Shown one piece after another: positions 31,221-34,193 of a DNA stretch of 64,000 nt. The notes beneath the pieces were generated by a model that worked only from the letters and a program-made list of their open reading frames with translations, searched no databases and was not told the origin of the DNA. Source of the DNA: Gemmatimonadota bacterium. Lineage in GTDB: Bacteria > Gemmatimonadota > Gemmatimonadetes > Gemmatimonadales > GWC2-71-9. Position 1 is the first letter of the stretch, and the number at the start of each line of letters is the position of its first letter. The position numbers and the translations under genes were made by a program. The DNA lies in the NCBI GenBank assembly GCA_039584755.1, contig JBDGXD010000002.1:2706-66705 (forward strand), read 5' to 3'.

Positions 31221-31260
31221 TTCGGGTTATATTCGGTATAATGGCCGAACAAACGCCGAA
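31221..31260. promoter_or_regulatory. Candidate operator: TTCGG-N6-TTCGG-N8-CCGAA-N6-CCGAA, symmetric about a TATAAT box
   Basis: TTCGG at 31221 and 31232; CCGAA at 31245 and 31256; TATAAT at 31237-31242. It sits in the AT-rich divergent intergenic region between the Na/Pi transporter gene and the radical-SAM/imuB/dnaE2 operon. Confidence 0.45.
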
Positions 31261-31346: not shown

Positions 31347-32429
31347 GTGGCGCAAGTGTTTACCCAGCTTCAGGTTGCTTTTTCTGTCCGACATGTGGAT
31401 GGGGTAAGTGTGGCTAGGGGCGGTGGATGGCAGGATGGACAGAAAACAATCTCGTTGATCGATCTCGACATCAAATCGATCATCAACCCGCCTGAGAGCA
31501 CCGGTATGGGTTTTTGGTCGATCAATCCCTACGTGGGATGCGAGCTCGGGTGCAGCTACTGCTATGCCAGGTATGCACATCGTTACGTGATGGAGCGAAC
31601 ACATGATGCTGGGCAGATATCGATCGAGGAGTTCAATCGGTTTAGGGAAACACAGAGTTGGGAAGGTTTCGAACGACAGATATTTGTAAAGCGACGTAGG
31701 TCTGTACTTATAGCACTGGAGCGTGATCTCGCGAAAATTCGCATGAAAAGCACCCGTAGCAGACCACATCCCATAGTCATTGGCACTGCCACGGACCCCT
31801 ACCAACCGGCAGAGCAACGTTTTCATATAACACGCGCCATACTCCGCAGATTGCTGGAGACTCGGGGCTTAACCATCAGCCTCATAACAAAGAGCCCTCG
31901 TGTCTGTCGCGACATCGAGTTGCTGCGCGAGCTTAGCGCTAGACATCGGCTGGTAGTGTACATCTCACTCATCAGCACCGACGTACGGATCATCAAGCAG
32001 TTCGAGGCACGTTCACCGATGCCTCATGCGAGGCTCGCTACGCTGCGGAAGTTTACCGACGTTGGTATCATCGCTGGGCTCAACGTAGCTCCTGTACTAC
32101 CTGGTATTACCGACTCTGCTTTTCAGATAGACTCTCTCATGGCGGCTGCGCGTGAAGCTTCTGCTACTTTTGTGCATCCTGCGGCACTTCAGTTCTTCCC
32201 CACAGTTCGAGATGGCTACTTGCCAATAGTCGAAAAGCACTTTCCCGATCTGGTTCCACGGTATCGTGTCGCTTACCGAGGCAACTGGGATGCCCCAACT
32301 GATTATGTAGCTGCGATCAGACGACGTTTCCAGCGTGCCGCCCGCAAGTACGGGCTGGACACTGATGATCCACTACAAATAGGAGAGCAACGCCAAGCGG
32401 AATGCGATGCACAGTTGAGTCTGCTATGA
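31347..32429 (+). CDS. Radical SAM protein, SplB/COG1533 'DNA repair photolyase'-like
   Basis: SINPYVGCELGCSYCYARY (CxxxCxxC at 31539-31562) plus the downstream TIM-barrel-like pattern typical of this family. The start is uncertain, with in-frame GTGs at 31395 and 31410. Confidence 0.85.
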   Translation: MAQVFTQLQVAFSVRHVDGVSVARGGGWQDGQKTISLIDLDIKSIINPPESTGMGFWSINPYVGCELGCSYCYARYAHRYVMERTHDAGQISIEEFNRFRETQSWEGFERQIFVKRRRSVLIALERDLAKIRMKSTRSRPHPIVIGTATDPYQPAEQRFHITRAILRRLLETRGLTISLITKSPRVCRDIELLRELSARHRLVVYISLISTDVRIIKQFEARSPMPHARLATLRKFTDVGIIAGLNVAPVLPGITDSAFQIDSLMAAAREASATFVHPAALQFFPTVRDGYLPIVEKHFPDLVPRYRVAYRGNWDAPTDYVAAIRRRFQRAARKYGLDTDDPLQIGEQRQAECDAQLSLL

Positions 32430-33886
32430 AACGGGCGGCAAGACTGTCTCGAGGTAAGACGGTACGAAACAGGGTAGCGTCTCACCGACGAACCAACTTA
32501 TCACCTTACCGCAGCGCAGGCGGCAGTACGAATCTCCAAAGCGAGTTGGCAGTTTGCATCTGGTTACCACTTTTCGCACTACGTTGCGAACAACAACGGC
32601 GGTCCGAGTTTACGAATGACCCCACTGCACTCCTCGCCGTGGAGGACGTACGCAGACTCTGGCAGGTATCCCCAACTGCACGCCGTGCAGGTGTCAAGGC
32701 AGGCATGACAGTGAGCCAAGCGGTTGGACTCTGTCCAGCTCTCTTACTCTGGGAACCTGATCCAGTGTACTATGACGTGCAATTTTCCAATTTGCTCCTC
32801 GAGCTGGGCAATGTAAGTCCGGTGATCGAGCCAGGAGAATTGGGTCAGCTGTATGTGGGGGTCGACGGATTGCAAAGACTCTATGGATCACCGGAAGATC
32901 AGATAGGCATGATCCAACACACAGTGACGGTGTGGCAGCGAAAGCTGGTGGCCGGAAGCCGGGAGTCAAGAGCGAATATCGCAAGGGATGGCTGGAAAAC
33001 GCGGAATAGGAAGTGGGAGTTACGCCTTTCTAAGGGTGACAAGGAAACGGAGCAAGCTGCACGTTTTTGCGTTTGCACCTTTGCACGTTTTGGATGGGGC
33101 CGCGGCAAGTTCACTGCCTGGGTAGCTGCCACGCGTGCTAATCCTGGTGAGGCGGTGATCGTCAGCGAGAAGGAGCGGGTGGGATTCCTTGCATCACAAC
33201 CGATTGCAGTATTGCCACTCGAGTCAGACACACACAGACGATTGTGGCGCCTTGGAATTAAAACGTTGAGTGACCTCGCCCAGTTGCCTGAAGCTGCTGT
33301 AGTGTCTCAATTCGGTAGGGTGGGACGCCGTTTGTGGTCGCTCGCTGCTGGCGCGGTGGTCGATCCTGTTGTCGGTAGGAAGACCCCTGAACCAATCATA
33401 GCCAAAGTCGATTTTTCCCATCCGGTAGCAGATCGTACAATGCTCTCGCATTCCCTCGACCGGCTGATCGAGCAAGCATTACGCCATCCCCAACGTGCCG
33501 GTTGGCGCATCCTCAAAGCTCAGGTATGCGCACGACAAGAGAACGGCACCTCCTGGGTGTCCAGCGCCACTCTCAATGATCCTTCGGCGGATCGGCGCCA
33601 CATAGCCGCTCCTCTGAAGATCCGACTCGAGCACGCGCAATTCGTGAAAGCGGTTGAAACCCTAGCAGTGGAATTCACGATGTTCGCCCGCGGCACCGAT
33701 GAGCTACAACTGTTTGCCCGTGACGCAAACAGCTCAGCTCGGGCAGGGCGCCAACGTGCGCTGCGCACTGCAGTACGCGAGATAAAGGCGAGGTACAGAC
33801 GTTCTGGTCTGTATCAGATAGTAGAGGTTCAACCACATTCGCGACTGCTCGAACGCCGTTATGCACTAATAGACTATGATCCATAA
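32426..33886 (+). CDS. imuB: ImuB-like Y-family DNA polymerase homolog (predicted catalytically inactive)
   Basis: Y-family fold pattern, but the N-terminus reads LAVCIWLPLFALRCEQ, with no DxD carboxylates. There is a possible clamp-binding-like ELQLF at 33701-33715. ATG 32426 overlaps the radical-SAM stop (ATGA), and the track start at 32402 is also possible. Confidence 0.8.
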   Translation: MKRAARLSRGKTVRNRVASHRRTNLSPYRSAGGSTNLQSELAVCIWLPLFALRCEQQRRSEFTNDPTALLAVEDVRRLWQVSPTARRAGVKAGMTVSQAVGLCPALLLWEPDPVYYDVQFSNLLLELGNVSPVIEPGELGQLYVGVDGLQRLYGSPEDQIGMIQHTVTVWQRKLVAGSRESRANIARDGWKTRNRKWELRLSKGDKETEQAARFCVCTFARFGWGRGKFTAWVAATRANPGEAVIVSEKERVGFLASQPIAVLPLESDTHRRLWRLGIKTLSDLAQLPEAAVVSQFGRVGRRLWSLAAGAVVDPVVGRKTPEPIIAKVDFSHPVADRTMLSHSLDRLIEQALRHPQRAGWRILKAQVCARQENGTSWVSSATLNDPSADRRHIAAPLKIRLEHAQFVKAVETLAVEFTMFARGTDELQLFARDANSSARAGRQRALRTAVREIKARYRRSGLYQIVEVQPHSRLLERRYALIDYDP

Positions 33887-34193
33887 TCAGCTGCACCCAC
33901 TCAATCTCCCACGGCGTGTACAGGTCCAGTTGAACAATGAGGGGCTGCCATTGGCTGTGGCAAGCGACTCCGTCCTATTACCTGGTTCGACGGTTGAGAA
34001 GCAATTGAGTGACGTGCCCAAAGACGACGTAAAATCGGTAGCCGCCATACTCGAGATCTGGCGTGTCGAGGACGAATGGTGGCGGCAGCCGATATCACGC
34101 CGCTATGTGGAGGTTGTTCTGCAGGGAGGACGTCATGTGGTGTTGTACGAAGATTTGGCTACGGGTGATTGGTTTATACAAAGATGCGATTAG
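33876..34193 (+). CDS. Small Trp-rich protein of the imuB-dnaE2 cassette (DUF6504-like by recollection)
   Basis: 105 aa. The motif ILEIWRVEDEWWRQPISRRYVEVVLQGGRHVVLYEDLATGDWFIQ is present. It overlaps the imuB 3' end by 11 nt and lies 56 nt upstream of dnaE2. Confidence 0.6.
   Translation: MIHNQLHPLNLPRRVQVQLNNEGLPLAVASDSVLLPGSTVEKQLSDVPKDDVKSVAAILEIWRVEDEWWRQPISRRYVEVVLQGGRHVVLYEDLATGDWFIQRCD

Follow-up and report, generated by a model that had tools for sequence, protein, structure and literature searches.

The window analyzed here, a stretch of 64,000 nucleotides (nt) of contig JBDGXD010000002.1 from an uncultured Gemmatimonadota lineage, encodes a protein of 105 amino acids (aa) between a Y-family DNA polymerase gene and dnaE2. 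By homology, this protein is a detached C-terminal domain of ImuB (ImuB-C), made here as a separate polypeptide. Judged from its gene content, the locus as a whole is an iPolY/ImuY–ImuB-C–DnaE2(X) cassette, that is, a split ImuB in which iPolY stands for the inactive Y-family polymerase. This assignment is based on the apparently dead Y-family protein with clamp-binding-like and RecA N-terminus (RecA-NT)-like motifs encoded upstream of the 105-aa open reading frame (ORF), and on the DnaE2X-like polymerase encoded downstream. Overall, the data are best explained by a stand-alone ImuB-C acting in a split-ImuB mutasome cassette through a mechanism that recruits DnaE2, an explanation to which we assign a probability of about 0.82. 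With this assignment, a "hypothetical protein" can be annotated as a subunit of an SOS-type machinery for mutagenesis. Interest in the mutasome stems from its part in driving damage-induced mutation and drug resistance.

The ORF extends on the + strand from an ATG at 33876 to a TAG at 34193, and its 5′ end shares 11 nt with the end of the 494-aa Y-family ORF (stop 33884–33886). The ORF coordinates confirm the position, strand, and overlap reported in the initial annotation of this DNA. The distinctive C-terminal motif pointed out there is also present, at residues 61–100 (IWRVEDEWWRQPISRRYVEVVLQGGRHVVLYEDLATGDWF; the "-" in the earlier quotation is a Q), and tryptophan accounts for 4 of the 105 residues. 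A word-indexed search retrieved 111 homologs at E ≤ 1e-3, down to 40% identity, none of which carries a Pfam domain, and an exhaustive search with the family profile matched 1043 cluster representatives at the same threshold. In the family alignment, a linker of variable length lies between two conserved blocks: an N-terminal block, L-x-x-L-N-x-P...V-x-V...G-x-P, and a C-terminal block, W-R-v-D-D-E-W-W-R-x-P-I-s-R-R-Y...G...D-L...W-x-x-Q. Ten columns show no variation, among them W62, D66, E67, W68, W69, R70, and R75. Among 80 sequences (the window and 79 other loci), the mean proportions of nonsynonymous (pN) and synonymous (pS) differences in an ungapped conserved block of 49 codons are 0.22 and 0.71, respectively. 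Entropies at the three codon positions of this block are 0.69, 0.52, and 1.32, most of the variability lying at third positions. The 105-aa ORF is a real gene under purifying selection. Gene calls made independently at the Joint Genome Institute (JGI) contain the same 105-aa product, labeled hypothetical protein, on a 129-kb metagenome contig. The ORF is short, lacks a Pfam or NCBIfam match, and has no obvious Shine-Dalgarno sequence ahead of its ATG, as might be expected of a spurious ORF or a miscalled frame in the imuB–dnaE2 spacer. This explanation is refuted already by conservation: hundreds of homologs share invariant residues, pN/pS is about 0.3 with third codon positions the most variable, the position is kept across 80 loci, and the structural model is confident and β-rich.

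The closest known relatives are stand-alone ImuB-C proteins. BLASTP aligned the window protein over ~100 aa with those of Sphaerobacter thermophilus (ACZ39476) and Dehalogenimonas (ADJ25744), taken from the supplement of PMC12926913, at 36% and 35% identity, respectively (E ~2e-16). The Pfam model PF20114 (DUF6504; gathering score 24.2 bits) matches 16 of 44 distant relatives, with a best E of 2.3e-7. The same model maps to the C-terminus of Agrobacterium ImuB and to dozens of C-terminal fragments annotated as "protein ImuB," and it matches the stand-alone ImuB-C of Deinococcus deserti at 30 bits. The mention, in the initial annotation, of small DUF6504 proteins next to Y-family/DnaE2 pairs and sometimes fused to the ImuB C-terminus was therefore right in substance. 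Two profiles were used in comparisons by hhalign: A1, a narrower Gemmatimonadota-only family profile, and A2, built from the window protein and 43 relatives. A2 aligned with canonical Rhizobiales ImuB C-termini over 81 columns covering both conserved blocks (96.3% probability, E 1.7e-9). When the last 90 residues of iPolY were joined to the 105-aa protein, the composite was colinear with fused ImuB over the final 190 residues of the latter, spanning the RecA-NT region, the "PER" segment, and the barrel up to its end (E 2.6e-4). This colinearity places the gene boundary exactly at the linker that precedes ImuB-C in the fused protein. Members of the ImuB-C superfamily have a C-terminal tryptophan that is strongly conserved, at least two conserved basic residues, and no catalytic-type motif (PMC3765255). 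In the window family, W99 shows no variation in A2 and almost none in A1, R70 and R75 do not vary at all, and R76 hardly varies. Weak matches to PF08682 (DUF1780) were also obtained for 4 of the 44 relatives.

The AlphaFold2 model of the 105-aa protein is β-rich, with six strands (residues 13–19, 25–30, 52–68, 71–82, 87–93, and 99–103), a predicted local distance difference test score (pLDDT) of 80.8, and a predicted template modeling score (pTM) of 0.69. A Foldseek search of the Protein Data Bank (PDB) with this model gave no significant neighbor (best E 0.38), and the sole match in a sequence-profile search of the PDB was BFR2 at E 1, which is meaningless. For the ImuB-C barrel, no closely related PDB structure was found in PMC12926913 either. 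As modeled, the window protein would thus share a further trait of ImuB-C, being small, mainly β, and without a close fold relative in the PDB. The linker between the two conserved blocks, modeled with low confidence as an insertion at residues 31–51, is short or missing in other lineages, and it corresponds to a 19-residue gap in the alignment with the Sphaerobacter ImuB-C.

The upstream partner, iPolY, matches the Pfam IMS domain and, weakly, many DNA polymerase IV models. In a phmmer alignment with Escherichia coli Pol IV, D103/E104 are replaced by G148/Q149 and the D8 position by isoleucine. Across 74 orthologs, these catalytic columns contain G, R/L/K, and V/C/L/I. The loss of the catalytic carboxylates in the window protein and in its 74 orthologs indicates that the Y-family protein is an inactive scaffold. 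It shares 33% identity with the Sphaerobacter iPolY ACZ39475 (E 1e-54) end to end through the C-terminal tail, and only local similarity with the ImuB of Agrobacterium or Burkholderia. Since the window protein enters the Sphaerobacter alignment only from residue 52 onward, its start codon is not certain and may be the ATG at 32426, which overlaps the stop of the preceding gene, or the TTG at 32546, rather than the ATG at 32402. In the tail, (E)LQLF is followed by a segment resembling the RecA N-terminus as defined in PMC6511836, of pattern R-x-x-A-L-x-x-A-x-x-E-I-x-x-R-...-L-Y-x-V-x-E-V in 80 orthologous tails, and then by Q-P-W-S-R-x-P-E-R-R-Y-A-L-I-D-x-E-P. We infer from the QLxLF consensus that ELQLF is a β-clamp-binding motif. 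The Sphaerobacter iPolY has the same tail arrangement, its tail being EPWSRIPERRRALISFDP. The alignments place the split between the two genes directly after the "PER" segment of iPolY. In three loci (L065, L077, and L080), the iPolY tails lack the usual (E)LQLF context, and LF occurs in a different setting.

The downstream gene encodes a DnaE2 scoring 928 bits against the "error-prone DNA polymerase" model. Both catalytic-aspartate motifs, PDIDLDF and KIDFLALG, are present, and the protein is predicted to be catalytically active. Over its first 400 aa, it shares 54% and 43% identity with two published DnaE2X proteins, versus 27–31% with two DnaE2A proteins. Pairwise identity to these four references is consistent with a DnaE2X-like polymerase.

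Together with a SplB-like radical SAM gene at their head, the iPolY, ImuB-C, and DnaE2 genes form a four-gene unit on the same strand, with overlapping or short junctions (table 1). The radical SAM protein matches rSAM_Rv2578c at E 1.9e-51, yet scores under the cut-off of this model, and its stop codon overlaps an ATG of the next ORF (ATGA at 32426–32429). The 11-nt overlap between the iPolY and ImuB-C genes suggests translational coupling, which would favor matched amounts of both ImuB halves. The unit is flanked by a divergent Na/Pi cotransporter gene on one side and by a convergent ispH on the other. No terminator-like signal above background was detected inside the operon, and the purine/pyrimidine-rich spacer between the 105-aa ORF and dnaE2 does not fold into a hairpin better than shuffled sequences (z = −0.06).

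We examined the conservation of this organization in one genome per GTDB species. A stretch with the DEWWRxPIxR pattern encoding a relative of the 105-aa protein was found in 344 species genomes, and the best 80 of these 344 loci, used for synteny, all belong to Gemmatimonadota metagenome-assembled genomes or chromosomes; the split-ImuB cassette is common in this phylum. The end of the Y-family homolog meets or overlaps the small gene in 80/80 loci, and a DnaE2 homolog begins within about 100 nt downstream in 77 of them. The three exceptions, L065, L077, and L080, are Longimicrobiales-like; they keep the iPolY/ImuB-C pair and have no adjacent dnaE2. Published accession numbers likewise suggest an unlinked DnaE2X in Sphaerobacter. 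A radical SAM homolog is located upstream on the same strand in 56/80 loci. The almost invariable position of the small gene, wedged between the Y-family gene and dnaE2, makes an integral mutasome subunit or adaptor, as the initial annotation had proposed, the best reading of its role.

Table 1. Coordinates of the features discussed (positions in the window unless a locus is named).
Feature	Position	Strand	Basis
Stand-alone ImuB-C (by homology), 105 aa	33876..34193	+	Homology, synteny, profile, model, selection
N-terminal conserved segment LxPLNxPxxVxVxLxxxGxPxxV, first two predicted strands	33888..33959	+	Alignment; pLDDT > 90; aligns with canonical ImuB-C
Variable low-confidence linker, residues about 31–52	33966..34031	+	Length-variable gap; pLDDT 53–58
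C-terminal conserved core WRvdDEWWRxPIsRRY...G...lyeDL.tg.Wf.Q, four predicted strands	34056..34175	+	Invariant columns; hhalign
SplB-like radical SAM protein (Rv2578c/PA0069 type), first operon gene	31347..32429	+	Pfam Radical_SAM; NCBIfam rSAM_Rv2578c
Predicted catalytically inactive Y-family polymerase (iPolY/ImuY/"split ImuB" body)	32402..33886	+	Pfam IMS; catalytic residues lost
ELQLF, β-clamp-binding-like motif in iPolY tail	33701..33715	+	Nearly all 80 orthologous tails have (E)LQLF
RecA-N-terminus-like motif of iPolY, RQRALRTAVREIKARYRRSGLYQIVEV	33749..33829	+	Kept in 80 tails; colinear with ImuB RecA-NT region
Extreme C-terminal tail of iPolY, QPHSRLLERRYALIDYDP	33830..33883	+	Conserved in 80 tails; corresponds to the "PER" segment preceding ImuB-C in fused ImuB
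DnaE2, predicted error-prone C-family polymerase, DnaE2X-like, 1094 aa	34250..37534	+	PHP, pol3_alpha, finger, HHH_6, OB; NCBIfam
Operator-like pair, candidate SOS-type operator	31221..31260	.	TTCGG-N6-TTCGG direct repeats
Operator-like site A, TTCGGGTTATATTCGG	31221-31236	+	Followed by TATAAT, 31237-31242
Operator-like site B, CCGAACAAACGCCGAA	31245-31260		Reads TTCGGCGTTTGTTCGG on the − strand
140-aa HTH_31 protein	L025 5132-5554; L039 4148-4570	-	Weak HTH_31
DUF72 gene	L025 5687-6625; L039 5640-6584	-	Divergent from iPolY

The following mechanism may be proposed. DNA damage would derepress the operon, as suggested by a conserved operator-like sequence shared with recA (see below). The inactive iPolY would then serve as a scaffold, contacting the β clamp through ELQLF and RecA through its RecA-NT-like motif. 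ImuB-C would dock beside the RecA-NT/"PER" tail of iPolY and provide the main surface holding the PHP domain of DnaE2. DnaE2, as the sole active polymerase, would in this way be brought to stalled forks for error-prone lesion bypass. In fused ImuB, the C-terminal domain is reported to bind DnaE2 and to contribute to ImuA binding (PMC6511836, PMC12926913).

An ImuA is apparently missing from these cassettes. With three seed sequences, a weak test, phmmer detected no ImuA- or RecA-like ORF in the 64-kb window, and a search of the ±8 kb flanks of the 80 loci with three seeds gave a single weak match (E 0.008). As the small gene fills a slot in a cassette beside which no imuA-like gene was found, the protein might be thought to take over the role of the missing RecA-like ImuA, as the initial annotation had suggested. 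We reject this idea on homology and size, and consider it very improbable: the protein is a β-rich module of 105 aa homologous to part of ImuB, not to ImuA or RecA, and shows no P-loop-type fold, whereas ImuA is a RecA-like protein of ~240–250 aa. It gives no NCBIfam ImuA or Pfam RecA match, and comparison of the family profile with Agrobacterium and Burkholderia ImuA yielded no match either. Moreover, iPolY keeps the RecA-NT-like motif, a docking element for RecA or ImuA (PMC6511836), and canonical systems hold both ImuA and an ImuB-C domain, which are thus not interchangeable. Because iPolY carries this motif, RecA itself is presumed to stand in for the missing ImuA (PMC6511836, PMC12926913).

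Several observations weigh against the identification of the window protein as ImuB-C in a DnaE2-recruiting cassette. With the narrower profile A1, hhalign gave just 58% probability to the match with canonical ImuB-C (E 9.6e-5), and the alignment of the joined iPolY tail and ImuB-C, made with low-diversity profiles, reached only 42%. A plain hidden Markov model (HMM) search with the family profile failed to reach significance for three canonical or ImuB-like proteins, so that homology had to be recognized by profile–profile comparison with a broader alignment. The initial annotation had called for a DUF6504 profile check. Relatives and the family profile link the protein to this domain and to ImuB-C, as described above, but the 105-aa protein itself has no DUF6504 match even at E ≤ 10. 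Pfam and NCBIfam scans gave no match at all for the whole ORF at this threshold, nor any for its C-terminal half, and the first 36 family members produced only stray sub-threshold matches. The published Sphaerobacter and Dehalogenimonas ImuB-C proteins fail against the DUF6504 model as well, and the missing direct match is therefore attributable to a model that leaves this subfamily uncovered. This gap in annotation, affecting the WRxDDEWWRxPISRRY subfamily including its published members, is worth mending. Concerning the mechanism, the identity of the protein, its homology and synteny, the loss of catalytic residues in iPolY, and the conserved motifs come from the present analysis, and every protein–protein contact is borrowed from studies of the fused protein (PMC6511836) and from AlphaFold models in the literature (PMC12926913). 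Finally, the absence of imuA applies to just the 64-kb window and ±8 kb around 80 loci, searched with three seeds.

ImuB-C could also be a lesion-sensing or DNA-binding module guiding both the SplB-like radical SAM protein and the mutasome, rather than only docking DnaE2 (Aravind 2013). Such a role would agree with the conserved basic residues R70, R75, and R76 and the invariant tryptophans, with the radical SAM gene being in the same operon and upstream on the same strand in the 56 loci mentioned above, and with the reported occurrence of solo ImuB-C proteins in polymerase-free repair operons (PMC3765255). However, the link of the small gene to iPolY (80/80 loci) is far tighter than its link to the radical SAM gene, often located 1–3.6 kb away under its own operator-like motif. 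Published models place ImuB-C on DnaE2's PHP domain and on ImuA, not on DNA (PMC12926913), and the Foldseek search of the PDB returned no nucleic-acid-binding fold. We therefore regard this alternative as unlikely. A comparably speculative extension is that ImuB-C, as a dissociable and separately dosed subunit, would act as a switch gating the loading of DnaE2 on clamp-bound iPolY–RecA, and may even serve the coregulated SplB-like radical SAM protein through its lineage-specific linker. If true, direct photoproduct repair and mutagenic bypass would be joined under a single Gemmatimonadota operator, TTCGG-N6-TTCGG.

The identification of the window protein as a stand-alone ImuB-C places it within a body of computational work. 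The ImuB-C superfamily was defined as a domain that follows the dead Y-family region on the C-terminal side in ImuB and also occurs alone (PMC3765255, 2013), its stand-alone members neighboring DinB, inactive DinB and DnaE2, UmuC, or SplB-like radical SAM genes (PMC3765255). The link between ImuB-C and SplB-like radical SAM genes was thus already pointed out in Aravind 2013. Operons of iPolY, ImuB-C, and DnaE2 without ImuA were subsequently reported, RecA being presumed to bind the RecA-NT-like motif of iPolY (PMC6511836, 2019). More recently, a "DnaE2X-iPolY-ImuB-C-RecA" module was read as a split ImuB, and the interface between ImuB-C and the DnaE2 PHP domain was modeled (PMC12926913, 2026). 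The split-ImuB cassette is therefore already described computationally, and the 105-aa protein is a further member of the ImuB-C family, not a novel kind of protein. The term "uncharacterized" used in the initial annotation is accurate experimentally, for the stand-alone protein, but not computationally, since both the family and this gene order have been described (PMC3765255, PMC6511836, PMC8072749, PMC12926913). In the literature searched, nothing was found under the name "DUF6504."

Comparison with related systems delimits what is specific to the window. Like the ImuB-C of Sphaerobacter and Dehalogenimonas (PMC12926913; Timinskas and Venclovas 2019), the window protein has LRPLNxP..., WRxDDEWWRxPxSRRY..., and W-x-Q near its C-terminus, and as in the Sphaerobacter system its Y-family partner is apparently dead, with a RecA-NT/"PERR" tail, and its polymerase DnaE2X-like. 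It differs from the Sphaerobacter ImuB-C by ~19 extra linker residues and an N-terminus ~8 residues shorter. Unlike the DnaE2X-iPolY-ImuB-C-RecA systems, the window operon begins with a SplB-like radical SAM gene and has no lexA. The imuY-imuB-C-dnaE2 cassette of D. deserti has the same gene order and no imuA; it is damage-inducible, and imuY and dnaE2 are both required for ultraviolet mutagenesis (PMC8072749, 2021). Its 80-aa ImuB-C, in contrast, resembles the window protein only weakly (E 0.01) and matches DUF6504 directly, and the Deinococcus operon carries lexA, unlike that of the window. The C-terminal domain of canonical ImuB (PF20114) is homologous to the window protein and colinear with the iPolY tail joined to it. 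In canonical ImuB, however, this domain forms one chain with the polymerase body and has ImuA and DnaE2A as partners, whereas in the window it would be a separate polypeptide with a DnaE2X-like polymerase and no ImuA found nearby. UmuD′ and YolD (YqjX) of Pol V-type mutasomes are also small β-rich subunits encoded beside a Y-family gene with a RecA-NT motif. Their sequences are unrelated to that of the window protein, which has no LexA-like autoprotease domain, and the ImuB-C barrel is reported not to resemble their SH3-like core (PMC12926913). Furthermore, in the window the Y-family partner is predicted to be inactive and DnaE2 would carry out synthesis. As for the host, the main text and the supplements searched of PMC12926913 do not mention Gemmatimonadota, and Gemmatimonas aurantiaca, the sole member of the phylum in the 2019 survey, has the canonical ImuA-ImuB-DnaE2 with a fused ImuB (PMC6511836). 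The novelty of the present case is modest, and comprises the host lineage, a variable linker of greater length, an operon that starts with the radical SAM gene and does not include lexA, and the gap in Pfam coverage. The cassette is in addition a naturally domain-separated ImuB, and a separate protein of 100 aa could ease the dissection of the role of ImuB-C.

Upstream of the operon, two copies of TTCGG-N6-TTCGG in opposite orientation surround a −10-like TATAAT box. They are the only perfect matches to the motif in the window, and no promoter of the sigma-70 consensus type was called ahead of the operon on the + strand. Of 71 upstream regions taken from related loci, 64 contain the TTCG-N7-TTCG dyad, versus 1–3 of 71 coding controls, and the consensus is about TCTTCGGGATATATTCGGG. 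Where 1–3.6 kb lie between the radical SAM gene and iPolY, a separate copy of the motif accompanies each unit. A metagenome scan with TTCGGNNTATATTCGG gave at least 124 sites, many of them chance matches in low-GC contigs. Among the matches listed, the motif stands just upstream of iPolY genes at 13 sites, upstream of a radical SAM gene at 11, and upstream of dnaE2 at one. It was also found, among the same matches, upstream of recA in 12 contigs (L096, L102, L127, L131, L143, L146, L157, L164, L170, L183, L198, and L203), mostly about 26 nt before the start, as well as in single cases upstream of lhr (L118), ruvB (L117), and uvrD (L171), upstream of two DUF5131 genes, and upstream of one gene for an XRE-type regulator. 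Its presence before the cassette genes and before recA, ruvB, uvrD, and lhr is the pattern of a DNA-damage regulon operator, and TTCGG-N6-TTCGG is thus a candidate SOS-type operator. Its 11-bp direct-repeat form recalls the LexA box GTTC-N7-GTTC of Alphaproteobacteria and Acidobacterium, and the motif of locus L002 is exactly GTTC-N7-GTTC. No description of such an operator or of a LexA-binding motif in Gemmatimonadota or Gemmatimonas was found in the literature searched. This putative operator and regulon are the part of the analysis most worth following.

Some loci depart from the organization of the window. In a subclade comprising L025, L039, and about 20 further loci, an insert on the opposite strand separates the radical SAM gene from iPolY. 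It consists of one to three tandem paralogs of a 140-aa protein with a weak HTH_31 match and of a DUF72 gene. The latter is divergent from iPolY, and both genes therefore share the operator region. The HTH_31 and DUF72 inserts are missing from the window. An XRE-type protein encoded beside an operator-like site in L112 was considered as a possible relative of these 140-aa proteins and proved unrelated.

The public JGI calls for the window region (L084) shorten three of the four operon genes, giving a radical SAM protein of 157 aa, an iPolY of 373 aa, and a DnaE2 of 951 aa without the PHP N-terminus, and add a 59-aa ORF on the minus strand; the full ORFs hold complete domain sets. The closest plasmid-borne DnaE2, with about 40% identity, is encoded by the Thermomicrobium roseum megaplasmid (L081; NC_011961.1, 2703-8168). 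It is preceded by a RecA-domain protein annotated as "recombinase A" and by a 416-aa "hypothetical protein" with an IMS_C domain and a Trp-rich C-terminus (…DLWWPVERHRRTVWVEL…). This 416-aa protein resembles a reduced, fused form of ImuB whose partner would be ImuA3-like.

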